Shown here: positions 12,356-29,988 of the stretch, one piece after another
Numbering within the stretch: the first letter of the stretch is position 1
How the letters are laid out: each line of letters starts with the position of its first letter
Assembly: GCA_001787405.1 (NCBI GenBank)
Contig: MFWV01000003.1
Span: forward strand, 64,790-128,789
Reading direction: 5' to 3'
Source: Candidatus Pacebacteria bacterium RIFOXYA1_FULL_38_18
GTDB taxonomy: Bacteria > Patescibacteriota > Microgenomatia > UBA1400 > PJMF01
Length of the DNA: 64,000 nucleotides
Made by a program: the position numbers and the translations under genes
The notes under the pieces: generated by a model
Database searches by the model: none
Told to the model about the DNA's origin: nothing
Seen by the model: the letters and a program-made list of their open reading frames with translations, nothing else

Positions 12356-12430
12356 TCCCCTGTAGCTCAATGGCAGAGCAGGAAGCTGTTAACTTCAAGG
12401 TTGTAGGTTCGAGTCCTACCGGGGGAGCCA
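12356..12430 (+). tRNA. tRNA-Asn (anticodon GTT), CCA encoded
   Basis: Manual cloverleaf: acceptor TCCCCTG/CGGGGGA, D-arm TAGCTCAATGGCAGAGCA, anticodon loop CTGTTAA, T-arm GTAGG-TTCGAGT-CCTAC, discriminator G then CCA. Confidence 0.85.
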
Positions 12431-14005
12431 GATTGGGCGGGAGGGCAACAAAGAGCCCTTTTGTCCCGTAACATCGCTCTTTTCTTGATGTTCGAAACTC
12501 TTACACTCAAATTGGTCAATTTTATCGACTTTCGAACAATTGGTTTCTTTTACTGCCTGAGCCAGAATTTTGAATGCTTTGGTGTAGTCATAGAGGAGTT
12601 TTCCCTCGTCTAATTTCAAGTTGGTGAACACTAGTCGTATAAGGCAGCGCTGTTCTTCGGCTAAGCCTTTCTCTTTTGCAGTTAGGTAGATCTGCTTGGC
12701 TCTCTGGGATAGTTCGTAGAAGTTAATGCCGAAGTTGAAGTAGCCGTTACTAGCTTGGGAGTGCTTCCTGGTGGTTTCTAGGACAGCGTCTTTCTCTCCT
12801 GTATATTGCTTAAACTTCTGATTGTAAAAATCCAGGGTTATTTTCTCGTCCAACTTATCGTCGTAAAGTTTGTCCAAGCGCTTCTTAATTTGCTCGTAGC
12901 GCTGGTTTAGCTCCTCAATCGTAGTGGAGTGGTAGACAGTTTCATCGGCATGGCTTTCTTTAAGCGCTTTTTTGATCCACTCGGCTACTCTCTGGTTTCT
13001 AATGACCAGCTTATCAAAGCCATCAATGATCTGTTCTTCAACCTTTTCTTCTCTGACCCAAGTCTCCTGAGTGCATTCGTGATAGTGGTTGCAGTGTCCG
13101 TAAACCAACCCACCTCGTTGGGATTCCCAGGTAGTTAGCCCGCCACAGGTGGCACAGCGGCATAAACGGTTGAACAGGTAGTCGTGTCTGGTGAGTTTGG
13201 GTGTGGTTTTGCCTGTCAGCATATTTTGCACCTTATCATATAACTCTTGGGTGATAATCGGTTTGTGTTTACCATCGTAGATCTGACCGTTCCACCTCAT
13301 TTTACCAGTGTAGAAGGGCTCTCGTAAGAGTCTGTGAACTCGGCTCTTAACCAGTTTTACGCCGTGGTAGGAGCGCAAACCTTCCTCAAACATGGTCAAT
13401 GTTAATTTTTTGATTGAGTAATTACCCGAAGCGTAAAGCTCGAACATTTTCTTGACCATGACTGCTTTTTCTTCCTCGATAAGGATGATTTTGTGTCCCT
13501 TCTCGCCTACGGTCTTATATCCCACAGGCGGTTTAGTGGGTAGCCACCCTTGCGCTATTTTCTCTTTCTGTCCTTTCTTCACTTCCTCGGAGAGGTTATC
13601 AATGTAGTTTTTTGCAAAAAGGATACGGATGCCCCAGTTCAGTTTCTCTTGAGAACGAGAGTTTTTATGTAAAATCAACGAGTCTTTGACCAGGTGGACT
13701 TGGCGTTCCTCATCATCCTCTAGCCATTCATCAATCATGACAGCATCCTTGAAGCTTCTGGTCAGGCGGTCTACTTTCTCGCAGATAATGATTTTTAGCC
13801 CTTGCTTCTGGACATACTGCATCATCTGGGTGAACACTTCTCGCTGTTTCTTACCACTGGCTGATTCAGAGATGGCGAAGACTTTATCAACACTATAACC
13901 AGTTCTTTCGGAATAGGCGCTTAGAAGCTTCTCCTGGGCTGGTAGGGAGTAGCCTGTTTCCTCTTGTTCTTTGGAGCTGACTCGGCAGTATAGGATGCTT
14001 TTCAT
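12416..14005 (-). CDS. Large serine recombinase (integrase), resolvase/invertase catalytic domain plus recombinase domain plus zinc ribbon
   Basis: N-terminal ILYCRVSSKEQ catalytic-Ser block, recombinase-domain blocks, Cys-rich ribbon (CRCATCGG...HC..H.C) and a coiled-coil tail; its stop codon lies inside the 3' end of tRNA-Asn. Confidence 0.85.
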   Translation of the reverse strand: MKSILYCRVSSKEQEETGYSLPAQEKLLSAYSERTGYSVDKVFAISESASGKKQREVFTQMMQYVQKQGLKIIICEKVDRLTRSFKDAVMIDEWLEDDEERQVHLVKDSLILHKNSRSQEKLNWGIRILFAKNYIDNLSEEVKKGQKEKIAQGWLPTKPPVGYKTVGEKGHKIILIEEEKAVMVKKMFELYASGNYSIKKLTLTMFEEGLRSYHGVKLVKSRVHRLLREPFYTGKMRWNGQIYDGKHKPIITQELYDKVQNMLTGKTTPKLTRHDYLFNRLCRCATCGGLTTWESQRGGLVYGHCNHYHECTQETWVREEKVEEQIIDGFDKLVIRNQRVAEWIKKALKESHADETVYHSTTIEELNQRYEQIKKRLDKLYDDKLDEKITLDFYNQKFKQYTGEKDAVLETTRKHSQASNGYFNFGINFYELSQRAKQIYLTAKEKGLAEEQRCLIRLVFTNLKLDEGKLLYDYTKAFKILAQAVKETNCSKVDKIDQFECKSFEHQEKSDVTGQKGSLLPSRPIWLPR

Positions 14006-14050
14006 AATAATTGTTTCAGCAACACAACATAAAGAAATAACCAGGGAATA

Positions 14051-14653
14051 TCAAGTTGAGTGTTCATCTTTGTTCCAAATTCGCTTTTCATAAAAATCTT
14101 TAATTGTCTGATCAATTGCTCTACCCAGTTCACTTTCTTCTGGCGTAGGTGGCTTCTGTTCGTCCTCGTTAATTTTCTGGACGATTTCTTGTTTGCTTAT
14201 GCTTTCACCGCCTTCTATTCGCATCATTTCCCATAATGCCTTTAACTCTGGGACTGAGGCGGGTTCACCTGAGCGCATTTGTTTTCTTAAGGTTTGTAGT
14301 TTGTCCCAAAACACTTCGGAAATAATATGGAGTCGTTTCTGTCGTATTTGGCTCGTCTTCTTTTTAAGAATTTCCACATCCTCGCTAAGTTTCAAGTCAG
14401 CTCGTTCTACCCAACGATACTGCGATGACCAGCGTTCCAATGTTCTTTCTGAAGGTAATCTGCCAAGTTTATCCTTGAAAATCCCCGACACCTCTCCTAC
14501 AGATCCCCGCAATATTCCTTGCCAAGTTTGCATAAGTCGAGTGAGACTGTTGGTTTCGCAATAAAGTAGAAACGCCACATACTGTCGCTCCTTTTCTTTA
14601 GGCATCTTGGAAGTGATTAATACTGGTGGCTTATTTATTTGTTGTTGTTCCAT
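14051..14653 (-). CDS. Hypothetical protein (island-encoded)
   Basis: ORF-track ORF co-oriented with the recombinase; no recognisable motif. Confidence 0.4.
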   Translation of the reverse strand: MEQQQINKPPVLITSKMPKEKERQYVAFLLYCETNSLTRLMQTWQGILRGSVGEVSGIFKDKLGRLPSERTLERWSSQYRWVERADLKLSEDVEILKKKTSQIRQKRLHIISEVFWDKLQTLRKQMRSGEPASVPELKALWEMMRIEGGESISKQEIVQKINEDEQKPPTPEESELGRAIDQTIKDFYEKRIWNKDEHST

Positions 14654-14867
14654 CTTGTTCTAACCTTTTATTAATAAATCGATCAATGCTTCTGGTAGCG
14701 CGTTGTCGAATTGTCGCGGGTAACGACTCGTTCTCAACTTGGTCAAGGTATTTTTCGAAAGTTACTGACTCTTTCTCACCACAAATGGATCTTACGGATC
14801 GCCTTAACAATGTCGATATCATCTGTTTTCTTTTCTGCTTGGTTAATATTGTTTGTTGTTTCATGGG

Positions 14868-15221
14868 TTATTTGTTTTTTGGCGTGGGTTTGCCAATATT
14901 TTTATAAACTTCTTCCCTAAATTTCTTCCATTTTTCTGGCGACATTGGTTTATATTCAGGTTCAGTTGCCCGCATGGGCAGTGCCTTTGCGTCTTTGAGA
15001 AATCTTCGTTCCCGATAAAACTCGGTAATATAGGGAATAGAGATAGCAAAAGTCTCAAAGACAATCGCTCCTCGTTCACCCTTTGCCAGTGCCTCCTGCA
15101 CTAACCGAGCTTGGTTTTTAGACAGGTAGTATCTGCCTTTGCTGGTAAGAATGACTACCCAGAGTTCCTCGTAGTCATCATCATTTAATATTTCTGGCAT
15201 CGATGCCTCGTTTACTGACAT
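14868..15221 (-). CDS. Hypothetical protein (island-encoded)
   Basis: ORF-track ORF 14868..15284; start trimmed to an internal Met to reduce overlap with the upstream gene. Confidence 0.3.
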   Translation of the reverse strand: MSVNEASMPEILNDDDYEELWVVILTSKGRYYLSKNQARLVQEALAKGERGAIVFETFAISIPYITEFYRERRFLKDAKALPMRATEPEYKPMSPEKWKKFREEVYKNIGKPTPKNK

Positions 15222-15921
15222 GTTCATTCGCCTCCTTTCTAATTTGTAATGCGTCTCGTTTGACGAAATTGCGTAAAGCTGCAAAGTAATCGGAATAGTC
15301 TTTACCAGTCGATTGGCAATAGTTCATCAGGTCATCATATTTACTGGTTACGAAGGGAAGAGGCACACCATATCGTTGGGCTATATCTGTAAACTCCGCT
15401 TCACCAAGGCTCTCCAAGGTGGAATATTTACCTTTAAGAGAAACTAAACCCTTCTCTTTATGTATTTCTCTTTTATTATGTGTAACCTTTAGATGTGACT
15501 CCTTAAGGGGCAATGGTTGCCCCTGGCTCTGCTCTTTTTTGCCCATGGATACTCCAGGTGCAAAATTTGCACTTGGTTGTTTCCAGTGGGATTTATCTAG
15601 AAGAAAGTAAGTGTTATTGAGCCATTGACCCCCTTTATTGCGAACTTTTTCCCGTCTGATAATATTCCACTGTTCAAGTAATTTAATTTTGCTTTTTACC
15701 GTCCTTACCCCAATTCCATGTTCTCTGGCGATAGTCACCTGGCTCGGGAAAGCTGATTGCTCTTTATCGGCGTGACGACATAAAGACACATACACCGCCA
15801 GCGCAGATGGTTTTAGATATTTTGCCCAGCCATTCACATAGGCATCATCCATGCAGAATTTTTCCTTTATTCGTAAGTCTCTGACCCTGAATGTTCGAGT
15901 GTTTATGATTGTTTTTTGCAT
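15181..15921 (-). CDS. HTH DNA-binding protein, possible replication-initiator/DnaD-like or phage regulatory protein
   Basis: Winged-helix/HTH-like block VTIAREHGIGVRTVKSKIKLLEQWNIIRR; island context; function inferred weakly. Confidence 0.4.
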   Translation of the reverse strand: MQKTIINTRTFRVRDLRIKEKFCMDDAYVNGWAKYLKPSALAVYVSLCRHADKEQSAFPSQVTIAREHGIGVRTVKSKIKLLEQWNIIRREKVRNKGGQWLNNTYFLLDKSHWKQPSANFAPGVSMGKKEQSQGQPLPLKESHLKVTHNKREIHKEKGLVSLKGKYSTLESLGEAEFTDIAQRYGVPLPFVTSKYDDLMNYCQSTGKDYSDYFAALRNFVKRDALQIRKEANEHVSKRGIDARNIK

Positions 15922-16063
15922 ATTTGTTTTTGCTCAATTTTGACTAGCAACTCGACAAAACTTATCCAGCTGGAGCCGATTTCGTAAACTTCCTCCAGGC
16001 TTAACTTTGCTCCGTAGTCTTCTTCCAATATCTGCTTTAGCTCTAGGACCAACTTATGACTGA

Positions 16064-16351
16064 TCATGTTTGATCCTCCGAGTAGAGACGGGACTTTATT
16101 GTCCGCAACTGATTAAAATAAGTTTGTGGGGATACGGTGAGTTCGTTACGAAAATACGCCTCAACTAGCTCGTTGAGTTGTTTATTTTTTTTGAAGACAA
16201 AAACCGCTTTACGAGGATTGGACTTATTGATTTCCTCGATTGGTTGCCATAAGGATAAAGCGGTGGCAATGGCGAGATCGCTTGTGAGATAGTAATCGGT
16301 GTTTAATTCTTGCTGTTTCATAGTGATAGTCATTCGGTTGGTGACTATCAA
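16064..16351 (-). CDS. Hypothetical small protein (island-encoded)
   Basis: ORF-track ORF co-oriented in the island. Confidence 0.3.
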   Translation of the reverse strand: MIVTNRMTITMKQQELNTDYYLTSDLAIATALSLWQPIEEINKSNPRKAVFVFKKNKQLNELVEAYFRNELTVSPQTYFNQLRTIKSRLYSEDQT

Positions 16352-16428
16352 GATTGTTAAACAAACAGCAAACTACCGCCACGGATTCTTTTACGACTTT
16401 TTTACGATCCTTTTGCGATGAAGGGAAT

Positions 16429-17082
16429 TTATGGACGAAGTAGCTTGTAGCCCACATTTCTCTTGGAGATAATCATATCTTCAATTTCATCTTTGGTCAT
16501 ACCCGCATCTTCTAAAATAGGAACGATGTTTCTTCTTATATACTGAACGGCTACAGCGATCTCTTTGGAATCAGACGATGCTCGACAATTCAAATCGAGT
16601 TTATCAGCTATTTCCCCATATCTGACAATTTGATCACTTTCCACAAGGAGAATTAAATACCTTATTTCATCCTGGGTGGGCGAGATCTCTACTGGTTTAT
16701 TGCCTTTATACTGCATGACCCCTTTTAGTAGATCGATTTTTAGTTCTCTCCACACATATACTCCCTCTGTCTTTTCAGGTTGAGTATCCTTGCCTCCAAC
16801 CGCCAATTTTTCTCGGTCAACCATTATTTTAACTGTCTCGCCCGCGAACCTTCCCAGCTTGTTTAAACAAGATATATCAATTACTTGCACTAGATGCTTT
16901 TCCTCAAGTGTCCTTAACATCTTTTTTAAGTCGTCTTTGGGAATTAAGTCGCCATTTTTATCTCTAAAATTCCAAAGAGTGATAGCAATCGCCTCGTCCG
17001 ACTCTGGAGATATTTCGACCTTTTTTTGAATAATATCCACCACTAAGCGTAGTGGCTCTGGTAATGCCATTATCATAGTCAT
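16429..17082 (-). CDS. Hypothetical protein (island-encoded)
   Basis: ORF-track ORF, 217 aa, co-oriented with the regulatory module. Confidence 0.4.
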   Translation of the reverse strand: MTMIMALPEPLRLVVDIIQKKVEISPESDEAIAITLWNFRDKNGDLIPKDDLKKMLRTLEEKHLVQVIDISCLNKLGRFAGETVKIMVDREKLAVGGKDTQPEKTEGVYVWRELKIDLLKGVMQYKGNKPVEISPTQDEIRYLILLVESDQIVRYGEIADKLDLNCRASSDSKEIAVAVQYIRRNIVPILEDAGMTKDEIEDMIISKRNVGYKLLRP

Positions 17083-17155
17083 ATTTATATTTGGGTATAA
17101 AAATACCCACTCTTATTTTACTAAAAGTGGGTCAGATAACCTAGGGAAGTTTGTT

Positions 17156-17428
17156 CTAGAACTCAAACAGGTCTTTGACCTTTATACTCAAACCTCTGGC
17201 AATTTTGATCAAATACCTTACTGAGGTATTCACATACCCATTCTCGATCTTCGCCAGATACGAGACATTACTTGCAGCTTTATCAGCAAGATCTTCTTGC
17301 GTCATCTTTTTCTGCTCACGAATTCGTTTGATAGTTTTACCCAATACCTCTCTTTCACGCAGGAATGGATTATTTTGTGCATATCCTCTCATGCTCACAG
17401 TATTTCCATATTTGGAAACATTTACCAT
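17156..17428 (-). CDS. XRE-family HTH transcriptional regulator (phage cI/Cro-like repressor)
   Basis: Canonical XRE HTH: LGKTIKRIREQKKMTQEDLADKAASNVSYLAKIENG. Confidence 0.8.
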   Translation of the reverse strand: MVNVSKYGNTVSMRGYAQNNPFLREREVLGKTIKRIREQKKMTQEDLADKAASNVSYLAKIENGYVNTSVRYLIKIARGLSIKVKDLFEF

Positions 17429-17478
17429 TCCATATATGGCAAGATTGTGCTAAAATTAGCCTGGTAGCCAACTAAAAC

Positions 17479-17547: not shown

Positions 17548-18420
17548 ATGACAATGACACATAAAAACAAATCTCGTATTCTGCCTGCTATTCTTTTCCT
17601 TGCCGTAGTTACTATTTTTGCCGTTGTATTAGCTCCTCGCTTTTTGGGTCAATCCAAAGTCGTTCAAACCCCGCAAACCAGTGCCAAAGACAAGCAAGTC
17701 ACTGAGCTTCTGGCTAAAATGAGCGAGAACCCCAATAAGGACTCTCAGGAGTATGCAGAAGCTAGACAGGAATTTTGCATCCTGACCGCACGACCAGCAG
17801 CCCAGAGAGAGAAAGCTGTAGCCAACATTAGGCAATTCCTGGGCATGACCGACATCCCAGTCGAATTCGTTTGCAGTAGGTTTAACGGTAAACCAGATGA
17901 TAGCGGAACGGACTACAATAGCCCTGCCAGCGAAACTTATGAGGCTGCACGATTTAGCTTTACAGTTGATCCAAAGACCAACTACATCGTCGAGACAGGC
18001 GAGGCAGAGCGTCGATGGGGAACGAAAGTGGATGGCACACGCTGGTTTGAAAACATGCCAGAGTATGATGACACGCCCACCTACACCACGTCAGAGGCTA
18101 TCAAGCCAGTAGCGGAAGCTTTCATGATTAAAAACAAGGATATCTTTGGAGTAGACATCACCAAAATGACCTACCAGTTCGAAGGCAGCAAGATCGGTAA
18201 CTTCTTTGTAAAGTGGATCGATAAAAGCAAACCACACACAAAGGACAGTGTGGAGTGTGGAGATGTCGACCAGAAGCGTGAAGGCGCATACAAAAACGAT
18301 CAAGGAGTATGGTGCTTAAAAAGCATCTACACCACATACCCAACAGTGAACATGACCATCATGCAGAGCGGGCAGGTGGCGGTCTACGACAATGACGGCT
18401 GGGAGATAGAGAAGCTATAA
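17548..18420 (+). CDS. Secreted/membrane-anchored hypothetical protein
   Basis: N-terminal signal/TM segment ILPAILFLAVVTIFAVVLA; strong RBS; no known motif. Confidence 0.5.
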   Translation: MTMTHKNKSRILPAILFLAVVTIFAVVLAPRFLGQSKVVQTPQTSAKDKQVTELLAKMSENPNKDSQEYAEARQEFCILTARPAAQREKAVANIRQFLGMTDIPVEFVCSRFNGKPDDSGTDYNSPASETYEAARFSFTVDPKTNYIVETGEAERRWGTKVDGTRWFENMPEYDDTPTYTTSEAIKPVAEAFMIKNKDIFGVDITKMTYQFEGSKIGNFFVKWIDKSKPHTKDSVECGDVDQKREGAYKNDQGVWCLKSIYTTYPTVNMTIMQSGQVAVYDNDGWEIEKL

Positions 18421-18699: not shown

Positions 18700-21600
18700 T
18701 CAAGGGGTTGTTTGCATTTGGATTTCTTTTTCTGGAGCAATTGTCCTTTTTAGATACTTTTGATCTCTTTTTTGAAAAGCGGGAAGCGTTCCCTCAAGAA
18801 CATCTAGTATTTTTTTGTTCGTAGCAGGGTTTTCTATGCTACCAGAGGTGTATCTGATTTCATAAGTGTGCTTGTCCATCTCAGAGCTAATTATTTGTTC
18901 GGCGTCGCAGACAACGGCAAGATTAGGGTTATGGGTTACTATGATGATCTGTCGTTCTTTTTTGGCTTGTTTTATGTAAGGGACTAGGAGGGTATAGACA
19001 GATTCGTTATCAAGATTTTCCTCTGGTTGGTCAATTATGAGAGGAACCTTATCCTTGTCTATCAATAAGTAAAAAATTAACAGTAATGCTCCTATCTCCC
19101 CAGGAGAAAATTCATTCTCATTTAGATCTTTACCATTGAAAGTAATGTTGTATTTAACTTCAAGGTATTTTAATCCGTAGAGGTAGTTATAAAGTTCTAA
19201 TTTTTTACCATCACTTTTTATTAGCTGATCATCCAGCAGCTTGATAGGATTTCCCTTTACTGATTTATCGACTCTGAGACATTCAATGAGCTCTTTGATA
19301 AAGTTTACAACGCCATCTTTTGTTTTCAGGTCGCTATTTGCGATAGTTTCTTTTACTCTGATTAACGCCTCGGCTTTTCCTTGAAAACTGCCGTCTCTGC
19401 TTTGATCAATAAAGGATAAAAAGTCTATGGGAAAATTAAGTTTGTCAAAAACTATCCCGACATCAAAATTAAGCACACTACCTGTTTTCCTCTGTTTTTC
19501 CTCTTTATCGCTTATGACCTTGGCAAGAGGGGCGTAGATTTCTTCATAGAAGGAAATCTTTTTTAGAAGTTCATCATAAATTTGCTCAACGGTTTGATCT
19601 CTCAGTTTCTCTGACGTTTCAATATCTTTATCTAATTTCTTCTGAACATACTCTATTTCACCAGTTAGGGACTTTATTGTCGTTAGACTAGTGTCATCAT
19701 CTACACCTTCAATCAATCCTCGTTTTGTTTGATATGTCTTCAACGCTTTTTGATATTCTCGAAAGGCGTTGTTTTCTTTGTCAAGGCTATCAACGATTGT
19801 TTTTAGATCTGCCTGTATGCCTTTTTTCTTTACGACTAGGCTTGTTTTTGCGTCTCCCTCTTCTGATAATAAAATAGTTAGGCTGTCTTTTTCCAGGTTT
19901 AGGGAAGTCTTCTTCTGTGTGATAAGAGCCTCGTCTATTTTGATGGTAATAAGCTTTTGTGGATCAATACCCAAGAAGGTTAGGTCTTCTTTATAACCAG
20001 AAAGAAAATCATCAAATTGCTTTTGTAGACTGCCTAGGGCAATTTCGAGATTTTGGACCTTTGTAATGTTTTGGTTAACACCCTTTAATACCAACTGCTT
20101 TTCCCCGATGAGCTTTTCAACCTCTTCAAAGGATTTATTAAGAGCTGAGATTTTATCTTCTACATCTTTTGAGGGCTTGCTTTTAGGTTCTGTAACTTTC
20201 TTTGGTTTGACTAAATTCTTTAGCTCCCGTTGTTTTTCCTCTAACTTACGCTTGAGCGATCCAAGATAGATAGGGAGTTTTTTATTTTCTAGTTTACATA
20301 TGGAACCGTTTTGTTCCGACACTTTCTGTTTCAAGGTTTCAACATTTCTATCAATTAGACCTGTTTTTAGCCTAATTAGGTCTTTTAAATTACTAGTGCT
20401 ATTTCGATTTTCCTCGGGAACATATGAGAAGATTACTTTGTCAATTTCCTGCTGAAAAAGCTGATTAACACCACTGCCATCGCAGATCGCCTCAACGAAC
20501 TTTTGAGGGAGATACTTCACCTGCTCGGGTTCTGTGAGATTCACTTGATCATCAAGATTTGACTTTACGGAGATCCCATCCTCCCAAGTGAGTATTGCTT
20601 CATATTGTTTTGCCAGACCTTTTTTCCTGAATTTATCATCTCTCAAAAAAGAGTAAGTATTTGAGTCAGCATGGCTTTTTCCTGCCAATGCCATAGAATC
20701 TGCTTGTGCGCTTTTACCGCTCCCTTTCTTGCCAATAATTGCCACTAAACCAGGATTGATAGGAATTTCGTTATCAAACCAAGGATTCTTTTGAGTGCTG
20801 TCTACTGGTTTCAAAGATATAGCGTTAATGTAATGAGACTTATTACTTTCGATGTCGAGTAACTTGGGTGGCATTTTACCAATGAAGATTCTATCTTCTG
20901 GTTCATTTACAACTTGTCTTAATCCCTCAAAAGTTGGGTCAGCTTTTATCCAGCAGCATCTTTCGCATGGTTGTGACTTTTCATCTCGGATTGCCCCAAT
21001 TGGATATGTGTGTTCATGAGAGTCGCTACCTTTAAGGCATGGCTTTTTGTCTTTGAACCACTCTTCAAATTTTTCCTCTTTAACCTTGTCATCTTTCCAA
21101 AGGAAGAAATCTATTTGTTTTTGATTCGATGACCCGATAAAGTGCGAATCGTTTATAAGTCCTTGCTTGAACCATTGATCATTTACTGGATCGATATTGT
21201 CAATACCGCCATACTCGTCATATGGCATCCAAATCAGGTATTTCCCTCTGAAGGTTGGGTTTGCCTCAAGTAACTCCTTTGTTCTACCAAAATCAACAGC
21301 TACATTCTCGTATAAAAACTTGCTGTCAGAATATTTACTGGAGATTTGACTTCCATTAACGATAAGTGATTTTAGGAAATTCTCTATATCTAAGATATCT
21401 ATTTCATTGCTAAAAACGATATGAAAATTTATTCGCTGACCATTTTTAGAGTTTTTGTTGAGTAGGGCGTTGGTCATCCTAAATTCAACCACTGGCAGAA
21501 CAACTTTGTTTGAGTTGGGTGCTTTGGTTGTAAACTGCTTATAGCCCTCTACAGAACAGTAATCATTGATACCCACAACATCACAATCAGATTTTTCAAT

Positions 21601-21781: not shown

Positions 21782-24094
21782 TTATTCATCAATTTTATAA
21801 GCACTACTGATGATAGCGTCGAAACTGTTAATTCTGCTTATTGCGGTATGGGGTAGGATTTTATAGATCCACTTCTTTTTAGTTGCTCCAGAAGCAATCT
21901 TGCACCATTCTTCAGCTTGCTTGGCTTTCTCAATTACCTCTGGGTCTTTTTTGTCTAACTTGCTCTTGTCTTTTACCTCCACTAGATAATTGGCATCATC
22001 TCTTTCAACGATGAAGTCAGGGTTATAGTTGCCGTAAATATATCTAATTGGCAACTGACCAGTTCGAAGTCTTACCCAACTAATTACTGTTTTGTCTTTT
22101 TCTAAAGAGTCGGCAAGTAGCTTCTCCTGGGTTGAATCAAAAACATAAGAATTGTAGACACTCTTGTCATAGCCATCAATAATGTTTCCTCTGGCTTCTG
22201 CTTCGCTCACCTCGTCTTTATCCAATGGAACAGCGGAAGCTTTTACTACTTTCAGATAAGGTTCAAATGAAAGCTCCTCGTCAAGCACGCCAAACTTAAT
22301 CGTTGTCTGTTCTTGGAGTCGCTCCTGCAATTGAGGTAAGATATCATTCAGGATTGTCTGTTCGTGAAGCTTTACCAACTTCGACAATTCTTTATCAGTA
22401 ACCTGAAGCTGGTCAAGATAGTGCTTTACAATCTTTTGTAAAACTGCCTTGAAAGAGATGTCAAACTCGGACATTTCCATAATAATCAACCTTACGATTC
22501 GGTTGACTGGATCAATCTCTTCTTTTACTACAACCTCTCCTGCATCCTCAGTTTGTCTAGAAACAATATCGGCTTTGATTAATCTTGGCTTTATCTTCTT
22601 TAACTCCTCTAAACGCAACTTAATTGGGAAGAATTCCAATTTATTACTCGAATAAACTTTTGCTTCAACTAAAGGAACTTTAACCCAAAGTTTCTTATTA
22701 TCTGTTGGTTTAATTTCAACAGTTTTAAGTTCTTCTTTCTTCTCAGCTTTTTTAACTCCAAGCCCTTCTGCCACTTCATGGGCTACTGCCACCACTCTAG
22801 CAAAGTTATCGTGCGAGATAATGTCGAGAGAGTCCAGCTCCTCAACCCCTGTCAGTTCGCCAAATGGCAAACGCAAACCTCTCCCGATAGTTTGCTCAAT
22901 CAGAGTCTTACTGATTGAAGCCCTGAAGGGAATGATCGTATAAACATTTTTAACATCCCAACCCTCTTTTAATTTATCGACATGGATAACGATTTCATTT
23001 TTATTAACGGGATATGGTTCCTCTAGGCGGAGGAGTTGATGGATAGAATCAACCTCGCTTTCACTGGTTACCAATAGGGTTTTATCTTTGTAATAGCCAT
23101 CAAAGAAACTATCACTTTCAATAAGTGCTTTGACATCCTTAGCGTGCTGGATATTCTTTGTTGTTAAGAGGGTAATTGGTAAAACAAACGGTAATTTATT
23201 GTTTTTGCAGTATTCCTCAATAAGCACCTTTTTCTCTCGGTGTCTTCTGATCCCATCCTCAAGTTTTACCAGTTCTAGGTCACCTTTGTAGGTGTAGTCG
23301 TCACTTCTGGCAATAACATAGGGAATCTTGATGTAACCACCCTTGGCGCCATTACCAGCCACCAAGCTCTCCAAAGCCCGCTTAGAATCGTTTATGGCGT
23401 CTCCTAGGGTGTAGGAATAGACAATGTTGTCACTTATTGGGGTAGCTGTGAACTCCAGTCCCAATTCTGGTTTGAGATGGTTAATAGCCCTAATCGACTT
23501 AACTCCTCGATATCGATGACTTTCGTCCATTAAGATAACCAGATCCTTTTGTTGCAGAAGTTCTGCAAAGCTCGATCCTAATGTCTCTTGATAACGATGG
23601 AACTTAAATTCAACATCGGTTCTCTCGTTAAAGATCTTCTGGATGTTGAAAACATAAATGTTGACTGCCTCAAAAAGTTGATTACCGAAGTTAGCGTAAC
23701 TATAGTTTTCTCCAGTAATCAGGTTAAACAAGGGGAAATCAGTTAATCCATCTAGGACATACTTTTTACTCGAAGGAGTAAAGTTATCGATTGTTTTGGT
23801 ATAAATCGTTTCTCCTGGAGTCAGGATGAAAAAGTCCTTTAGCCCTTTGGTGTAATAGAGGTATGCGATCATACCCGCCATCAGTCTGGTCTTACCAACG
23901 CCTGTAGCCAGGGCAAAAGTAAAGGAGGGGAAGTCAGTGTCAAACTTTACATTACCAACCAATCTCGCTTCAATGTCCTCTAATTTATCTCTACCCAACT
24001 TAACCCCTGAAAGGATGGCATCCAATTTAACGAGTGAAAGCTGTTGTGGCTTTCTTAAGCTTAGTTCTTTTGTGATTTTATCTATTGTGTTCAT
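21782..24094 (-). CDS. res: Type III restriction enzyme, Res subunit (SF2 helicase plus PD-(D/E)xK nuclease)
   Basis: Walker A ATGVGKTRLMAG, DEAH-like ILMDESHRY, motif VI QTIGRGLRL, C-terminal PDFIVER...LVEVKDK nuclease motif; 4-nt overlap with Mod. Confidence 0.8.
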   Translation of the reverse strand: MNTIDKITKELSLRKPQQLSLVKLDAILSGVKLGRDKLEDIEARLVGNVKFDTDFPSFTFALATGVGKTRLMAGMIAYLYYTKGLKDFFILTPGETIYTKTIDNFTPSSKKYVLDGLTDFPLFNLITGENYSYANFGNQLFEAVNIYVFNIQKIFNERTDVEFKFHRYQETLGSSFAELLQQKDLVILMDESHRYRGVKSIRAINHLKPELGLEFTATPISDNIVYSYTLGDAINDSKRALESLVAGNGAKGGYIKIPYVIARSDDYTYKGDLELVKLEDGIRRHREKKVLIEEYCKNNKLPFVLPITLLTTKNIQHAKDVKALIESDSFFDGYYKDKTLLVTSESEVDSIHQLLRLEEPYPVNKNEIVIHVDKLKEGWDVKNVYTIIPFRASISKTLIEQTIGRGLRLPFGELTGVEELDSLDIISHDNFARVVAVAHEVAEGLGVKKAEKKEELKTVEIKPTDNKKLWVKVPLVEAKVYSSNKLEFFPIKLRLEELKKIKPRLIKADIVSRQTEDAGEVVVKEEIDPVNRIVRLIIMEMSEFDISFKAVLQKIVKHYLDQLQVTDKELSKLVKLHEQTILNDILPQLQERLQEQTTIKFGVLDEELSFEPYLKVVKASAVPLDKDEVSEAEARGNIIDGYDKSVYNSYVFDSTQEKLLADSLEKDKTVISWVRLRTGQLPIRYIYGNYNPDFIVERDDANYLVEVKDKSKLDKKDPEVIEKAKQAEEWCKIASGATKKKWIYKILPHTAISRINSFDAIISSAYKIDE

Positions 24095-25647
24095 ACTTTG
24101 AATTTCCTTAATAAAACATCGGGAATTTTTCTAACTTCGACATTATCAGGTAATTTTATTTTACTTGATATGGTCTTAGCATAGATAATAAGAAAATCGG
24201 CTGCATCGCCAATTTCCCGAAGGACTGCCTCTACATACTCCTGATTAAGATACTGCTCGGTGACATGAGCGATAGTTCTGCCTGAGATACCGTGGAGACC
24301 ATTGTCTGGGTGAAGAAGTCTAAATCCTTCTACCTTTAGGACTGCTCGAATAAGCGCACCGTTATAAACCTTTGGGTTGAGCACTGTTAACCTTAAATCG
24401 TCATCTTCTACAAATAAGCTATCTCCAAGCTCAAAATACTTAAATCCACCTCCACCACTCCAATCATATAATCTACTTATTCCTTCTTGGTCTTTGCCTG
24501 ATACCGCTACCTTTAGTCTTGGTATTATGTGGGTTTTAGCATGGTTACCCAATTCCACCATAATCCATTTACGATTTCGCTTATGAGCCACGGCACCTGT
24601 TGTGCCTGACCCTGCAAAAGAGTCTAAAACCCAATCACCCTCTTTAGAGGCTAGATCGATAATCCTATTAATAAGTCTTTCTGGTTTTGGAGTTGTAAAT
24701 TCGTCTTCCATATTAAAAGCCCTTATTTCTCTTTTAGCCTCCTGATTGTCTCCAACCTCTGTTCTAAACCATATCGTTTTTGCTACAGATCCTTGTTTGA
24801 CCTCAGTAAGAAAAATCTTTAAGGATGGTTTGTTCTCACCCTTTTTCCCAAACCAGATTCGATTATCTTTAATCATCTCGTTCAGTTTTTCTTTTCCATA
24901 AACCCAATGTCTGTTATTGCTTGGTAGAAACTTTTTGCCTGCAGGACTTGTGATTTCATACTGTCCGTAGGGGAAGGGGTCTTTTGCAGTCAAATCTGCA
25001 TTTTTCCAAACACCTCTTGGATCATTATCTGGATTTTTATATCGGGCGTTCATTTCTTCTGTTCTTGACAATAGGTTAGGTCTCCAGATGTCTTTATTTT
25101 TGGCGTAAGCAAGAATATGATCGTGACTATCTGATAGCCATTTTGCATCGTTTTGTGGCGAGTATTTTTTCTCCCAAATTACATTTGAAATAAAGTTTTT
25201 TCTACCAAAGACTTCATCACATAAAACTTTCAAGTAATGACACTCATCATCGTCAATTGAAATCCAAATACTCCCATCTTTGCTTAGTAGTTTGTAGAGC
25301 GCTTCTAGTCTCGTTTTCATCAATCCTAGCCAAAGAGAATGCTCCATGCCGTCATCGTAATGCGAGAAAGCATTACCAGTGTTATAGGGAGGATCAATAT
25401 AAATCAGTTTTATTTTGTTTCTAAAATCTTGAAGAAGCGATTGAAGGGCAAGCAGATTATCACCCTTGATAAGCATATTCTCTGTATCTTTGTCCCCAAA
25501 AGTCTCTTTCTGGAGTGAAATTCTCGGCTCTGTTACTCTGGGGTCTTTCTTATCCACCCATTCATAATTACCCGTATCGACATCGTAATAAAGGCTCTTA
25601 CTCTTATTTGCCCAGTTTAATTCTAATTTATTGTCATTTTTAGTCAT
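24091..25647 (-). CDS. mod: Type III restriction-modification DNA methyltransferase, Mod subunit (N6-adenine/N4-cytosine, beta class)
   Basis: Motif IV IYIDPPYN precedes motif I FAGSGTTG (beta-class order); lies directly upstream of and overlapping Res. Confidence 0.8.
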   Translation of the reverse strand: MTKNDNKLELNWANKSKSLYYDVDTGNYEWVDKKDPRVTEPRISLQKETFGDKDTENMLIKGDNLLALQSLLQDFRNKIKLIYIDPPYNTGNAFSHYDDGMEHSLWLGLMKTRLEALYKLLSKDGSIWISIDDDECHYLKVLCDEVFGRKNFISNVIWEKKYSPQNDAKWLSDSHDHILAYAKNKDIWRPNLLSRTEEMNARYKNPDNDPRGVWKNADLTAKDPFPYGQYEITSPAGKKFLPSNNRHWVYGKEKLNEMIKDNRIWFGKKGENKPSLKIFLTEVKQGSVAKTIWFRTEVGDNQEAKREIRAFNMEDEFTTPKPERLINRIIDLASKEGDWVLDSFAGSGTTGAVAHKRNRKWIMVELGNHAKTHIIPRLKVAVSGKDQEGISRLYDWSGGGGFKYFELGDSLFVEDDDLRLTVLNPKVYNGALIRAVLKVEGFRLLHPDNGLHGISGRTIAHVTEQYLNQEYVEAVLREIGDAADFLIIYAKTISSKIKLPDNVEVRKIPDVLLRKFKV

Positions 25648-25649
25648 AT

Positions 25650-25841
25650 TTATTTTTTCTTGTTCTTCAAAATAACCTCAAGGTCTTTAGGATCGTAACG
25701 CCTGTCTCCACGCTCATTTACTATGATAGCCTTTAACTTACCACTTTTGTCCCATCTCCTTAATGTTTCGACATGGACATTGATAATTTCGGCTGCCTGT
25801 CGAATTGTCAATAGTTTTGGTAATTTATTGTTTTTATCCAT
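25650..25841 (-). CDS. Small HTH DNA-binding protein (excisionase/MerR-like; candidate controller or recombination directionality factor)
   Basis: 63 aa; LLTIRQAAEIINVHVETLRRWDKSGKL is an excisionase-type HTH; 2-nt gaps to both neighbours. Confidence 0.55.
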   Translation of the reverse strand: MDKNNKLPKLLTIRQAAEIINVHVETLRRWDKSGKLKAIIVNERGDRRYDPKDLEVILKNKKK

Positions 25842-25843
25842 AG

Positions 25844-27652
25844 TTAGTGTTGGCTATTCAGCCTATTTGCAAGCATCTCTTGCTCATCATATAACGGCTT
25901 ATCTTGATCAATCATCCTCTGTTCAGCGGCACTTAACCATTGGTTAGACTCCATTTTAGACGCAATAGCTGAAATGTTAGCAATTCTTATTGAAATTATC
26001 TCGTTGATTCTATCGACATCGCCTTTGTTCTTCTGGTAAAAGTTAGCGTTATTTTTAAGATCCGCCCAACTTGGTTGAATTTCTCTTAGCTTTGATAGGC
26101 TGGTTTTCCAAGACTCTGTATCCTCTTTCTTGTAGTTAGGGGGGATGTAGCCAGCTGCATGAACAACAATAAGCTGTGTGGGGCATCCATTCAAACTTCC
26201 TTGGACTTCTCCAATACCAATATCATCAAACTTTTTATCAGACCATGTATTTTTAGCATCTGTAGAATCTCTTTCGAGATAGTCCTCAATCAACTCATCA
26301 GCGGTGTAGTAACCTTCTAGCGACCATTCCCAAACATAACTATTCCAATAACCAGCCTTTGACATTGCGCTTGAAACTACATCAAAAGAAGCCTCTTGTT
26401 GAATAGTATTGTTCTTTAAAAGATATTCGCCTCGTATTTTGGCTGATACATCAAGTTTCGGTTCGTATTTTACTGGTGTTGCTCCATTTTCCTTGCGTTT
26501 TTCATTAAGCAATTCAACAAACCTATTTCTGTCAATTATTGGCTTTACTGTATCTGACAAGTCATTCGTTGCATCATGCCAATTTTTATCAAGTTTGCCC
26601 TTCTGTTTTTCCAGGGGTAAAACAAGACGGATATCTTTAATGGAAGCAAAACCGATCTCTCTTGAATCGGAACTGCCTTTTCTATTGTCTCCCATAGCAA
26701 AGACCGCATCTTGTGGAACCGTAATCACCTGGCACTCTTTAAGAAACTTCTCGCCGAATGTCGAGCGTGGTTTGGCAATATAAGGTTCTTTTTGTGGTTC
26801 TCCATTGAGATAGACAATACCATCCCTAAGTTCTATTGTGTCTCCTGGTAAGCCAATAATTCTTTTTAATAAACCTGCAGGATTACCACCATCTCTGCTC
26901 GTTAGCTCTCTTGTAGTATCATTTTCCCAGGTAAGAATGTCGCCTCTACCTAGTGTGTGTCCTAAAAATCTTCTTCCATTTATCACAATTCCGTTTGGGT
27001 AAGGTAAAAAGCCCGCCGTTGATATAATCTCTTTTGCCAATTCCTTGTTGCTTTTGCCTTTTGTGCCTTTCTCCCAAGTCGGATACATTGAGCCTGTCCC
27101 CACAATATTTATGTCTTCAGTGATATACCCCAGCTGACTAGCAGCTAAAGCTCCAACCGTTACATATCCACCAATCCAAATAGGCAAGATAATAACTCCA
27201 ACCGCTATAAGCGTAGTGACCCTGACTAATATTGGTTTGAGACGAAATGATTTAAATAAGCTCTTGATGCCGTCATGTTTTAGTCTTTTGACAAACTCAA
27301 GTGGTTTGAGGATATAAATAAACAAATACAAGGGCAGGATAGCGAGGATGAAGAACAGTTTAATGAGAAAAATAAAGATATTTTGTCTCTTATGAGACCT
27401 CTTAGCTATTAGTTGTGCTGTAAAGCTAGTTATTCCAATCAAGAAAGCGAAACTTCCTAGAAGGACGAGACCAAGAAGCGAGAAAGCAAAAACATCGGGT
27501 GCTTTGTCGAACATCTCTTTTCTTATGCCAACGACATACCCCATGATGGAGAAGACGCCAACAATACATCCTACCCAGACTATGGCTGATACTTTAATAA
27601 TCCAGTTAAGGACTTTTTCTTTGTTTAGTTTTAACGACATTTTTCTCCGCAT
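25844..27652 (-). CDS. Signal peptidase I (S26)-like protein fused to an N-terminal polytopic membrane domain and a C-terminal extra domain
   Basis: About 6 N-terminal TM helices; S26 boxes GTGSMYPT (Ser nucleophile), LPGDTIELRDGIVYLNGEP and GDNRKGSSDSR; C-terminal 270 aa of unknown function. Confidence 0.65.
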   Translation of the reverse strand: MRRKMSLKLNKEKVLNWIIKVSAIVWVGCIVGVFSIMGYVVGIRKEMFDKAPDVFAFSLLGLVLLGSFAFLIGITSFTAQLIAKRSHKRQNIFIFLIKLFFILAILPLYLFIYILKPLEFVKRLKHDGIKSLFKSFRLKPILVRVTTLIAVGVIILPIWIGGYVTVGALAASQLGYITEDINIVGTGSMYPTWEKGTKGKSNKELAKEIISTAGFLPYPNGIVINGRRFLGHTLGRGDILTWENDTTRELTSRDGGNPAGLLKRIIGLPGDTIELRDGIVYLNGEPQKEPYIAKPRSTFGEKFLKECQVITVPQDAVFAMGDNRKGSSDSREIGFASIKDIRLVLPLEKQKGKLDKNWHDATNDLSDTVKPIIDRNRFVELLNEKRKENGATPVKYEPKLDVSAKIRGEYLLKNNTIQQEASFDVVSSAMSKAGYWNSYVWEWSLEGYYTADELIEDYLERDSTDAKNTWSDKKFDDIGIGEVQGSLNGCPTQLIVVHAAGYIPPNYKKEDTESWKTSLSKLREIQPSWADLKNNANFYQKNKGDVDRINEIISIRIANISAIASKMESNQWLSAAEQRMIDQDKPLYDEQEMLANRLNSQH

Positions 27653-27703
27653 ACCTCAACTTAATTATACAAAAATAAAAGGAAAAAAGGTATACTTGAA
27701 ACG

Positions 27704-28630
27704 ATGAAAAAACCCATAGCCTCATGGCGATATTTATTCAAATTACCAGTCAATATCTTTAATAATGAAATGGTTGGCTATGAAATTAACCCCCTGCCAT
27801 ATTCCGATCAGGGTAAGGTAGTAATCTTTGCTGGTAAAAGTGACCAAACGGAGGACCAGGGCATCGTTTATATTTACCTTGAGCTTCTAAAGGAGTTGAG
27901 TCAGGGCAATAACTTTGCTAATTTACAGCGATTACTGAATTTAATTTATATGGAAACTGGTTTGCCTACGCATCCATTTCCTGTGCAGATTGATGAAGGT
28001 GAAACTGCCGATCAAGTAATTTCAAGGTTTATGTCAAAAACCTTTTATTATCCAGACAGAAGTTACAGTGGAACAGCTTCGCAGCCAAACCATATTGCCA
28101 GGGTTCAATCGTGTGTGAGTCTTATAAGCAGACTAAATAAAAAGAATTTTAATAAGTTTGACAATGCCTTGAATACCTATGTTTGGGCTTTAGAGTTGAT
28201 GGAATTACCAAATCCCCACCTGAAATATACTCTTTATATGACGCTATTTTTGTCTTCAATTGAACAACTGGTTGATATACCTGCTACCTGTAAACATAAA
28301 CCTTTCCCTGTTTGTGAAGGTTGCGGGAAGGAGTTTGCCAATCACCATCCAAAAGGAAAAGGAGTCAGACAGGCTTTTGAGGATTTTATTCGAGAAATGT
28401 TGACTGGAAGCGGAGTAGATGATGCAGTTGAAAGAGTTAACCGTTTACACCAAAAGTTAAGATCGTCATTCTTACACAGCGGCACGCTTTCTGGCGCAGA
28501 GAAAGTTGGTGGCTTCTTAACTGATGGCACGAACGACACCACTCTAATCGTGGAAGATATGATGAACACCTTGATTTTGAACAGACAGTTATTAGAACAG
28601 TTCTTGCTAAAAAGGCAAATTAAACTATGA
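27704..28630 (+). CDS. Hypothetical protein with Cys-rich zinc-ribbon-like motif
   Basis: [16 protein letters not shown]; 4-nt overlap with the downstream gene. Confidence 0.4.
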
Positions 28631-29805
28631 AAATTGGACGCAATGACCCATGCCCCTGTGGTAGTGGTAAAAAATATAAAAGATGTTGTTTGGTCAAACC
28701 TAGATTAATACCTAATGTTACTGAGGTAACTCCAACTCCTGAACTTGAATCATTGAGAGATCAAATTAACTTAGAAAATGAAGAGAGAAGAAAAAAGTAT
28801 CTAGAACCTCAGGGTATTTATATTGATTTTGTGAAGCCGATGATTTATCAGGGAAGGAAATTTTGGGCTTTAGGTAGTCGTCTATATTATGAGAGACCGC
28901 CCGACGAGACCTTCCATGAGTTCATTATCTTCGTTTTGTGTCAAACGCTCGGAGAAGAGTGGCGACGACAACAAATAGCTTTACCTGAAGAACAACAACA
29001 CTTTGCTTATAAGTGTTACAAGAAATATAACGAATGGCGAAAGAAAAATCATACTCTCAATAATCAACAAGGTGAGGTTTGGGCTGCCTTGCCCGATGGA
29101 TGGACAAGAGCCTTTCTTGCCTTAGCCTTTGATGTTTGTAGCTTAATCCATAAAGACTATCTGTCGGATAAACTATTAAATCGCTTAAGGAATAAGGATC
29201 AATATCAAGGAGCTCGTTATGAGGTGGCAATTATGGCAATGTTTGCTCGGTTGGGTTATAAAATCACTCCATTGGATGATACCGATATTAAAACAACACA
29301 CCCCGAATTTATTGCAGAAGACTTAGTTAATGGAGAGAAGATTGCAGTTGAAGTAAAAAGTAAGCAACGAGAGGGTGTTATTCATACTCCTGGTAGTGTA
29401 AGCGATCCAGCCCAACTATTATGGGGAGATGTGTCTAGGTTATATAGACACGCTATGAAACAAAATCCTGGCAACATCCCTTTTCTGGTTTTTATTGATA
29501 TGAATTCCCCACAGACTCCTGGTATTGCATGGCAAGACAAGCCTTGGGTCAAAGATATTAAGAAGATGATGACAAAATCTCCTTTACATAATCCACAAAA
29601 TCCAGATCCTTGTAGTGGACTTATGTTTACAAATTACTCCTACCATTATCAGACTGAAGACGAGGCTAAGAGTGGTGAACACCTACAGACGATACCCCTT
29701 CATCCTATCCATCGCATACAAAGAGGAGATTTCTTTGAAAGACTGGGTAAAGCCTTGGCTAGTTATGGGAATATTCCCAATCTCGATATTGAGGTGGGAA
29801 AATGA
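28627..29805 (+). CDS. SEC-C motif domain protein of unknown function
   Basis: N-terminal [17 protein letters not shown] matches the SEC-C zinc-binding motif; remainder unrecognised. Confidence 0.5.
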
Positions 29806-29988
29806 AGTAGATCAATTGTTTATAAATTTGGCTGATAAAAATCTCTGCGTTTCCTGGTAAGTCAGCTCTGGGTATTCGATCTCGTTGATCCAGTCTGTCC
29901 TTCGATACGAGTCCCATGATTCGAGCCAATTGGCACTTAATATACCGAATTTAGCCTCATTTAAAACGTGGATTGTTGTAATAAAGAT

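Follow-up and report, generated by a model that had tools for sequence, protein, structure and literature searches.

The 64,000-nucleotide stretch of contig MFWV01000003.1 analysed here (hereafter the window), from Candidatus Pacebacteria bacterium RIFOXYA1_FULL_38_18, a groundwater member of the candidate phyla radiation (CPR), very probably contains a mobile island of 17,498 bp (window 12431-29928) that carries phage-defence genes and is inserted at the end of a tRNA-Asn gene. We can also state with high confidence that the phage-side attachment site (attP) of this element lies inside the gene of its own large serine recombinase (LSR), and that integration separates the C-terminal tail of this gene to the far end of the island, 17.5 kb away. 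The boundaries of the island, the split gene, the targeting of tRNA-Asn by several independent elements and the horizontal spread of their family can be demonstrated at the sequence level, and the enzyme appears to belong to a widespread CPR serine-integrase family that targets the extreme 3' end of tRNA-Asn and whose gene would be cut and rejoined at each integration and excision. An initial annotation of the window had placed a putative integrative island, some 17 kb long and with an LSR, at the tRNA-Asn 3' end; its boundaries could be fixed using the split gene and the displaced flank of the tRNA, and the splitting of the integrase gene by integration is absent from that annotation. The features on which this reading rests are the following.

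12356..12430, plus strand: intact tRNA-Asn(GTT) with an encoded CCA end (ARAGORN; Rfam RF00005, 64.8 bits)
12425..12430, no strand: left GAGCCA, a 6-bp identity block equal to tRNA positions 71-76 (attL about 12400-12460)
12416..14005, minus strand: LSR in its integrated form, 529 aa (Pfam; PHROG integrase, 9.5e-72)
29812..29928, minus strand: detached 3' end of the recombinase gene (reconstruction, homologue alignment, tail profile)
29923..29928, no strand: right GAGCCA (attR about 29895-29955), with the displaced native tRNA flank from 29929 (ATTGGCACTTAATATACC)

The 529-aa protein matched the Pfam families Resolvase (PF00239, 76.3 bits for a cutoff of 23.3, E = 3.4e-21) and Recombinase (PF07508, 58.5 bits, 8.5e-16) and, slightly below the cutoff of 25.3, Zn_ribbon_recom (PF13408, 24.8 bits, E = 3e-5); its catalytic residues R8, V9 and S10 were invariant in an alignment of 26 sequences. 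Its TAG stop codon (12416-12418, reverse complement) falls within the tRNA gene, 15 nt in from the 3' end, as had been noted before, and the tRNA itself was confirmed by both ARAGORN and Rfam. Codons 1-526 are made of element DNA, W527 and L528 are read from the shared GAGCCA and are identical in both forms of the gene, and in the integrated form the tRNA, read antisense, supplies the two final codons (P, R) and the stop. When position 29928 was joined to 12431 in a reconstruction of the excised circle, the open reading frame (ORF) grew in frame from 529 to 563 aa, its ending changing from ...RPIWL-PR and a stop to ...RPIWL-ESWDSYRRTDWINEIEYPELTYQETQRFLSAKFINN and a stop. The detached end is composed of the W-L codons (29923-29928), 35 tail codons (ESWDSY...FINN, 29815-29922) and a stop (29812-29814). 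Once the island ends are joined, this segment continues the frame of codon 526; it lacks a start codon in that frame and is therefore not an independent ORF. The overlap between stop codon and tRNA, previously taken for the classic arrangement of a tRNA-targeting element, would thus arise because the crossover lies inside the integrase ORF, and no tRNA fragment is duplicated.

The reconstructed protein has natural counterparts. A search of 5.8 billion proteins returned 12 homologues of 552-558 aa, with 54-59% identity, that span 99-100% of the 563-aa reconstruction, and full-length homologues share the tail motif WD[DE][FY]Rxx.W......PEL....QLL. A hidden Markov model (HMM) of the tail was built from 13 full-length homologues, starting after the crossover and leaving the window out, and was searched against the six-frame translation of the window. 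It gave a single significant match, at 29815-29988 on the minus strand (E = 6.5e-11), the runner-up having an E-value of 0.37.

The junctions were placed between 12430 and 12431 and between 29928 and 29929 by three lines of evidence, namely the split gene, the native flank and related elements. The tRNA-Asn gene at 12356-12430 is the integration target and forms the B arm of the bacterial site attB and of attL. The att core search that had been recommended found GAGCCA at both junctions (12425-12430 and 29923-29928), and this is the only sequence that they have in common; no repeat of the tRNA 3' end of at least 14 nt was detected anywhere in the 64-kb window. Both observations are expected of a serine recombinase with a 2-bp crossover, which we infer to lie inside GAGCCA. 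The weak match to the tRNA 3' end that had been offered as a candidate attR around 29900-29930 turned out to mark the true right junction to within a few bases, and the sequence CGAGTCC...TTCGAGCCA found there is the P arm of attP. The reconstructed attP displays outer inverted repeats, CCCAT...ATTGGG, whose symmetry centre falls on the GAG of GAGCCA, and the same layout is present in the intact recombinase genes of free relatives. The predicted attB junction reads ..CCGGGGGAGCCAATTGGCACTTAAT.. and the predicted attP junction ..CATGATTCGAGCCAGATTGGGCGG.., the corresponding 60-mers being GTTCGAGTCCTACCGGGGGAGCCAATTGGCACTTAATATACCGAATTTAG for attB and ACGAGTCCCATGATTCGAGCCAGATTGGGCGGGAGGGCAACAAAG for attP. 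It is to be noted that a short inverted repeat, GGGCAACAAAGAGCCC, lies about 10-30 nt from the crossover in the P' arm (window 12431-12470, within the coding sequence of the recombinase). Inverted repeats of differing sequence are kept at this position in other elements (CAGGGAGAAAATCCCTG in locus L061 and GACGCAGAGGCAACAAAGCGTC in L065; also in L059 and L069), and could be protein-binding sites or RNA hairpins.

The native flank was recognized with the help of metagenome contig L058 (Ga0208958_1003870, 1-11218), which comes from a different genome and is otherwise unrelated to the window. This contig carries window positions 12307-12428 at 100% identity, a block of 122 bp comprising the tRNA and 49 nt upstream with a TATAAT-like box. 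Beyond the shared block it continues with AGGATGGGACTTAATATAC, and the right flank of the window from 29929 reads ATTGGCACTTAATATAC, 13 of 14 positions matching in the same register; likewise GGGACTTAATATAC, found in L058 after the same tRNA, aligns with the window from 29933 onward (GGCACTTAATATAC). Because of this same-register match, the sequence from 29929 can be read as the displaced trailer of tRNA-Asn. L058 does not encode the CCA end of its tRNA-Asn, downstream of which lie genes for an HNH-like protein, an IS1595 transposase, a SocA/Panacea antitoxin and a TdeIII Type II restriction-modification (R-M) system, with argH and argG further on. It thus seems that the trailer of tRNA-Asn acts as a hotspot where defence genes settle, in at least two genomes.

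We then asked how the gene ends in related recombinases, using 131 homologues of at least 480 aa anchored on the residue aligned to Leu528. After this residue, 61 of the 131 continue into tails that are antisense to the tRNA acceptor and T arm (for example PREDSNLQP, RGLDSNQQP or PGVDSNHEP, in which DSN is given by GGTTCGAATCC) and 27 stop within three residues, like the window enzyme, so that 88 show an antisense tail or a stop. The conserved tail is kept in 22 (13 full, 9 in a short version), 14 were classed as "other", and in 7 the anchor residue could not be placed. In the cluster sharing more than 90% identity, all members diverge straight after RPIWL, the W-L codons being TGG CTC, antisense to GAGCCA. 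The 3' end of the LSR gene overlaps tRNA-Asn(GTT) in loci L069, L070, L082 and L083 and, in L065, the 3' exon of a tRNA-Asn that a group I intron interrupts; L066 follows the same pattern as judged by sequence inspection only. The junctions of the integrated relatives all read ...GGGGAGCCA joined to GAT(T)GGG.... The full-length homologues L059-L064 are flanked on either side by element genes, including XRE pairs, Phage_rep_O, HTH_36, TraG-like proteins and M23 peptidase, and by no tRNA.

The residues at the crossover itself vary (WL in 78 of the 131 homologues, LL in 31 and WR in 6), and may vary in step with the presence and form of an encoded 3' end in the target tRNA; TGG is antisense to CCA, which the tRNA-Asn gene of L058, for one, does not encode. 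A few homologues carry tails that are neither of the WDxFR type nor antisense to tRNA: those of P0014 (PNPSFNINDSIKRLIDIVEE) and P0113 (PKPPFNINESIERLIKIIQE) are closely alike, with P0079 and P0008 loosely similar, and could represent another kind of tail or another conserved target. The intron of L065 lies in the anticodon loop of tRNA-Asn(GTT) (11655-11862, minus strand; Rfam RF00028, 76 bits, E = 9e-18), which is why ARAGORN misses this tRNA. The same intron core motifs (GGTGCAGAGACTA, GAGATAGTCC) were seen by eye at about 11630-11830 of L066, under the Rfam threshold. ARAGORN likewise misses the tRNA at the same junction of L080, whose 3' end is tRNA-like and where an intron is possible.

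The family appears to be abundant: of the 8,000 candidates scored, 3,792 were homologues at E ≤ 1e-3, most of them from CPR bacteria. LSRs more than 90% identical to that of the window occur in metagenome-assembled genomes (MAGs) labelled Pacebacteria, Beckwithbacteria, Roizmanbacteria and "Patescibacteria group", and the same core module lies beside unrelated chromosomal genes and with different cargo in L080/L081 and L082/L083. DNA identity to the window is mosaic, reaching 85-89% over the LSR, 89.5% over Res and Mod in L080 and 67-80% elsewhere, and the flanks of the relatives show no DNA identity to the window save weak (about 67%) matches of L065 and L066 to 10.1-10.9 kb. The nearly identical recombinases in other hosts, the unrelated flanks and the differing cargo point to a recent horizontal spread of the family.

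Two further detached tails were found at unrelated loci reached through homologues of the gene that adjoins the tail in the window, which encodes a 392-aa SEC-C protein. In L086/L087 (GCA_964422865.1) the tail HMM matched the minus strand directly after the SEC-C gene (E = 1.2e-5); this tail terminates in ...GTCGTTCGAGCCA, followed by ATAAAG and then by housekeeping-type genes, with TTCGAGCCA at the junction. In L088/L089 the match also lies directly after the SEC-C gene (E = 2e-7), and a tRNA-Asn(GTT) is located about 6 kb upstream. Between this tRNA and the tail (L088:5220-11362; L089:506-6648) there are only a 51-aa ORF, Res, Mod, MerR and SEC-C genes; tblastn detected no recombinase body in L088/L089, the whole core module being deleted. 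This locus is, by its gene content, a decayed island that would have retained its defence cargo and an orphan tail after losing its mobility genes. No tails were found in the 10-kb flanks of L065, L066, L067 and L069, which stop short of the far ends of these islands.

Among the three detached tails, the proportion of synonymous differences (pS) was 0.47-0.80 and that of non-synonymous differences (pN) 0.16-0.35, a pN/pS ratio of 0.32-0.46, over 31 codons whose synonymous sites are near saturation. Since synonymous differences far exceed non-synonymous ones, the tails seem to have evolved as translated sequence, and therefore periodic rejoining with the body of the gene would be required. Conservation moreover runs about 90 bp past the crossover, beyond an att arm, which argues for a role of the tail at the protein level when the element is free, possibly in directionality, stability or partner binding. 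An AlphaFold2 model of the 563-aa form, based on a 26-sequence alignment and containing no contact information, reached a mean predicted local distance difference test (pLDDT) score of 74. It comprises complete catalytic, recombinase and zinc-ribbon/coiled-coil domains through about residue 490 (beta strands at 282-305 and 460-474, long helices within 353-445), then a low-confidence linker (492-539) that contains Trp527-Leu528, with short tail helices at 530-535 and 545-557. According to this model, integration costs the protein some 35 residues, which form a tethered helical module, and spares all folded domains. Because these domains remain, the 529-aa form should still bind DNA and probably still catalyses recombination.

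The events that led to the present arrangement can be proposed as follows. The LSR would have recombined attP, situated near the 3' end of its own coding sequence, with attB, formed by the last bases of tRNA-Asn(GTT) and its downstream flank. The crossover would have taken place within GAGCCA, that is at tRNA positions 71-76 and, on the antisense strand, at codons Trp527-Leu528; the tRNA would be exactly restored because both partners carry this sequence. Codons 1-528 would then have stayed at the left end, running into antisense tRNA to give ...IWL-PR-stop, while the 35-codon tail (WDxYRxxxW...YPEL...FL) and its stop would have been moved to the right end. Excision would rejoin both parts and yield the 563-aa protein.

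Between its two ends the island consists of a core module next to the recombinase gene and of a cargo region:

14051..14653, minus strand: 200-aa core protein, weakly similar to small terminase subunits (phrog_6299 terminase small subunit, E = 1.2e-6; no Pfam match)
14631..15284, minus strand: pair of short core ORFs (77 aa; about 110-138 aa), called in all copies, no family matches
15181..15921, minus strand: HTH_36 replication-initiator-like protein (Pfam HTH_36, 4.8e-13; PHROG replication initiation protein, 5.6e-14; DnaD-like matches)
15903..17082, minus strand: core genes for a 54-aa ORF, a DUF5659 protein (16064-16351; 1.2e-11) and a 217-aa protein (16429-17082)
17156..17428, minus strand: XRE/Cro-C1-type regulator (Pfam HTH_3, 7.5e-14; PHROG transcriptional repressor, 1.5e-12)
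17548..18420, plus strand: divergent 290-aa core protein, no family assignment
18700..21711, minus strand: TrlF-family AAA-like ATPase, 1003 aa (NCBIfam NF045780, 607.7 bits, cutoff 350)
21782..25647, minus strand: Type III R-M system, Res of 770 aa (21782-24094) and Mod of 518 aa (24091-25647) (PADLOC, Pfam)
25650..25841, minus strand: MerR/HTH_17 protein, 63 aa (Pfam MerR_1, HTH_17; PADLOC mad1, 2.6e-12)
25844..27652, minus strand: 602-aa signal-peptidase-I (S26) domain protein with a weak YkwD-like region (Peptidase_S26, 1.1e-23; sigpep_I_bact, 8.3e-25)
27704..29805, plus strand: 308-aa protein and 392-aa SEC-C-motif protein (Pfam SEC-C, 5.6e-10)

The genes announced in the initial annotation (an XRE repressor with its divergent neighbour, an HTH Rep-like protein, small hypothetical proteins and an R-M operon) are all present, and Pfam and PHROGs bore out its statement that the island has no virion structural genes. 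The XRE gene opens the operon whose last gene encodes the recombinase, and the gene order at 15903-17082 is the same in L066, L069, L080 and L082. The divergent 290-aa protein, whose N-terminal hydrophobic stretch is a probable membrane anchor, is 74-81% identical across four islands in which the recombinases are 65-87% identical. In L065, an LOOT RNA (Rfam RF03000, 77.8 bits; 8259-8369, minus strand) is located just upstream of this gene. No counterpart was found in the window island, even with relaxed thresholds, and Rfam returned two tRNAs only over the island and the whole window. L066, whose recombinase is 87% identical to that of the window, encodes a 181-aa homologue of the 200-aa core protein that matches phrog_6299 as well. 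In this locus (8387-9937, plus strand; also in L068) a clear large terminase subunit (TerL; phrog_675, 1.5e-94) lies between the small-terminase-like (TerS-like) gene and the recombinase gene, and no structural genes are present in the 10 kb available. Unlike L066, the window island has no TerL. The backbone looks phage- or satellite-derived, given the weak TerS similarity of the 200-aa protein and the position of its L066 homologue beside TerL.

The defence character of the cargo, also suggested initially, is upheld by the Type III R-M system and the TrlF ATPase. Mod and Res lie in one operon, as required of a Type III system, and overlap by 4 nt; Res matched PADLOC REase_III (9.1e-86) and Mod MTase_III (4.9e-148), and the pair matched Pfam ResIII, RE_endonuc and N6_N4_Mtase. 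The ATPase is a full-length member of the TrlF family and gave weak PADLOC matches to mad3, to mad8 and, in its C-terminal part, to the anti-phage protein Ppl, the ATPase portion there being all that the two proteins have in common. An assignment of the cargo to the MADS system was rejected: PADLOC found only mad1 and the weak mad3 and mad8 matches on one ATPase, and MAD6, MAD7 and MAD8, mandatory in the published detection model (10.1101/2023.03.30.534895), are absent. The 63-aa protein is conserved in L066 and L088 and matches a PHROG named "excisionase and transcriptional regulator" (9e-10), making it a candidate either for a regulator of the cargo operon or for an excision (directionality) factor. 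The SEC-C gene is convergent with the recombinase tail and adjacent to attR in three independent islands (those of the window, L086 and L088). In a copy of the island 99.5% identical to that of the window (L009, ERZ28564294 scaffold_1502), an indel in the SEC-C gene (window 29635-29707) splits it into ORFs of 236 and 175 aa and Res is also split (699 and 71 aa); some island copies thus appear to carry degraded cargo.

Several explanations compete with integration by a self-splitting serine integrase, and the sequence evidence bears on them unequally. That the recombinase merely overlaps the tRNA by coincidence, being a resolvase or invertase unrelated to it in an ordinary variable segment, would agree with the lack of long flanking direct repeats and with a composition that is not distinct; it is scarcely conceivable in view of a split gene whose tail lies in frame at the opposite end, of the same tRNA-Asn junction in at least six independent contexts, of tail classes that are consistent across the family and of a domain set typical of LSRs and not of small resolvases. 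The tail might instead be conserved purely as DNA, as the P arm of attP, the splitting of the ORF being incidental to a compact genome. An LSR subunit normally binds 20-25 bp and an att site measures 40-50 bp; the first eight or so codons past the crossover (LESWDSYR) overlap the stretch that a subunit would bind and resemble the tRNA B arm at 17 of 28 positions in a hand count, and the 529-aa form is predicted to keep all folded domains. However, conservation extends about 30 codons (90 bp) past the crossover (W...YPEL...FL), beyond a site of 40-50 bp, the differences among the three detached tails are mostly synonymous and the tail is predicted to be helical, so that we regard a DNA-only tail as improbable.

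The present mobility of the island is a separate matter. The identical sequence occurs in Rifle-type groundwater metagenomes, with MAGs labelled Candidatus Pacebacteria (GCA_001787395.1, GCA_001787375.1 and GCA_001788645.1), and a number of observations speak against an active, self-splitting element. The exact 563-aa protein was not found in a collection of 15 billion proteins, nor the attP junction 30-mer in viral contigs; the island was present in all long contigs of this population, and no empty attB of the same strain was seen; no recombination directionality factor, which LSRs need for excision, was identified; and base composition and GC skew, which had been proposed as a check, gave no boundary signal across it. 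To these must be added the small number of codons and the near-saturation behind the pN/pS values, and the only moderate confidence of the tail helices (pLDDT about 62-68). The suggested comparison with empty sites was successful in so far as relatives were found at tRNA-Asn in unrelated contexts, and failed to provide a same-strain empty site. A scan of species-representative genomes with MgtE yielded only relatives of at most 60% identity (with Saccharibacteria and other labels) that lack the mgtE-tRNA-Asn synteny, and a metagenome scan with the intergenic region and the tRNA 5' end yielded one contig, L058, from a different genome. Contig ends at 12426 and 12428 on the left and at 29931 on the right had been considered as evidence of excision, and this was withdrawn. 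Island-side contigs end at 12302-12402 and mgtE-side contigs at 12426-12428, thereby bracketing the 122-bp block shared with L058, which makes the left breaks the product of a repeat between genomes and not of excision; at the right junction one contig only breaks (L010, starting at 29931), a weak hint. With no excised or empty form found, the mobility of the window copy is unproven.

It is rather unlikely, in our estimation, that the island is an LSR-integrated element now fixed and immobile, with an inactive or unexpressed 529-aa form and kept by its R-M cargo alone. All assemblies of the population do carry it at 99.5-100% identity, attP and attB forms were not found, the window has neither TerL nor structural genes where its relative L066 retains TerL, L088 exemplifies decay to cargo only, and R-M systems can behave as addiction modules. 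Yet the whole core operon is intact and free of frameshifts, as are the body of the recombinase and its detached tail, both att arms are preserved, the tails are under purifying selection and LSRs of more than 90% identity in other hosts imply recent transfer of the family; the missing attB and attP forms count for little because gene-based look-ups are blind to short bubble contigs. A further proposal concerns the route of transfer and is compatible with a self-splitting integrase: the element may be a phage satellite resembling phage-inducible chromosomal islands (PICIs), whose TerS-like protein redirects the packaging of a helper phage. The integrase, the divergent regulators, the Rep-like initiator and the TerS-like gene next to the integrase gene in a core of about 6 kb, the lack of capsid, tail and lysis genes and, in L066, a TerS-like gene with a clear TerL immediately upstream of the integrase gene are in keeping with it. 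It is nonetheless doubtful, as the TerS call depends on one PHROG (E about 1e-6) with no Pfam match, no helper phage is known, distant full-length relatives are accompanied by TraG/TrwB-like coupling proteins that suggest conjugation in part of the family, and the viral contig collection held only two LSR relatives, neither of them informative.

Returning to the self-splitting integrase, it is possible, though we advance it only tentatively, that the split acts as a switch that reports or controls the integration state, the tail being made only when the element is excised. The tail could for example favour synapsis between attP and attB, block synapsis between attL and attR, or set stability or partner binding, and the tail-less 529-aa form would then either excise readily or stay locked until the arrival of a full-length copy. 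If so, directionality would be partly written into the topology of the gene. No serine recombinase would have been known to behave in this way before, nor any bacterial integrase to be "self-partitioning", and the arrangement is apparently widespread across CPR. Serine integrases are major tools of genome engineering, and structural work is actively addressing what controls their direction; the present family, in which the C-terminus naturally depends on the integration state, offers a direct comparison of full-length and tail-less forms on att pairs. To our knowledge few integrated elements have been described in CPR bacteria, and the switch from W-L into antisense tRNA together with an orphan tail at the far end provides a sequence-only marker for mapping them. 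CPR bacteria rarely have CRISPR and are currently hard to manipulate genetically. The varied defence cargo of these elements bears on how they acquire phage resistance and, given the conserved tRNA-end target, these integrases may have a broad host range as tools for CPR.

The window element can finally be compared with known systems. Its LSR has the same domain architecture as those of phiC31, Bxb1, A118, SPbeta and Tn4451 (TnpX), and as in these elements the identity at the junctions is very short, long direct repeats are absent and the integrase gene adjoins the att site. It differs from them in its target, the last 6 nt of a tRNA gene, which is restored. In the model serine-integrase phages, attP lies outside the integrase ORF. 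A review of integrative mobilizable elements assigns the 3' ends of tRNAs and genes to tyrosine recombinases, and states that serine recombinases of the site-specific kind insert inside genes, which they disrupt (PMC5704250). Within the literature covered, which is incomplete, no report came to light of attP lying inside the gene of a serine integrase, nor of CPR serine integrases directed at tRNAs, and an earlier description may exist. The closest likeness in gene organization is with the "suicidal" tyrosine integrases of the SSV1 type, which according to PMC8371274 have their att site in the integrase ORF, target a tRNA, are split on integration and restored on excision, and are called exclusive to archaea. 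The window island likewise has its att site inside the integrase ORF and its gene partitioned by integration; in contrast to the SSV enzymes, which are tyrosine recombinases of archaeal elements, its enzyme is a serine recombinase in a CPR bacterial host, and where the SSV split removes a substantial part of the enzyme, here it removes about 35 residues behind a predicted flexible linker. In the SSV type the partitioned enzyme is inactive and an intact copy must act in trans for excision; the 529-aa form of the window enzyme is predicted to retain all its folded domains. tRNA 3' ends have been regarded as targets of tyrosine integrases and self-splitting integrases as archaeal and tyrosine-only, and the window element breaks both rules.

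In mycobacteriophages BPs, Brujita and their relatives, attP is located in the repressor gene and integration by a tyrosine integrase alters the C-terminus, and with it the behaviour, of the repressor. The window element resembles this integration-dependent immunity in that attP lies inside an element gene whose C-terminus is changed by integration, and differs from it in that the split gene is that of the serine integrase itself and not of a repressor. With Islander-type islands, tycheposons and PICIs it shares insertion at a tRNA 3' end with the tRNA kept, defence cargo, the lack of virion genes and a small core with regulators, a replication initiator and a gene weakly similar to TerS. Unlike the Islander type, the island contains no Phage_integrase domain, its sole recombinase being of the serine type, and no tRNA segment of at least 15 nt is duplicated distally, the longest shared block measuring 6 bp. 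We conclude that, as far as can be judged from its sequence, the element departs from the classical tRNA-island type, and that its enzyme has the defining features of an LSR.

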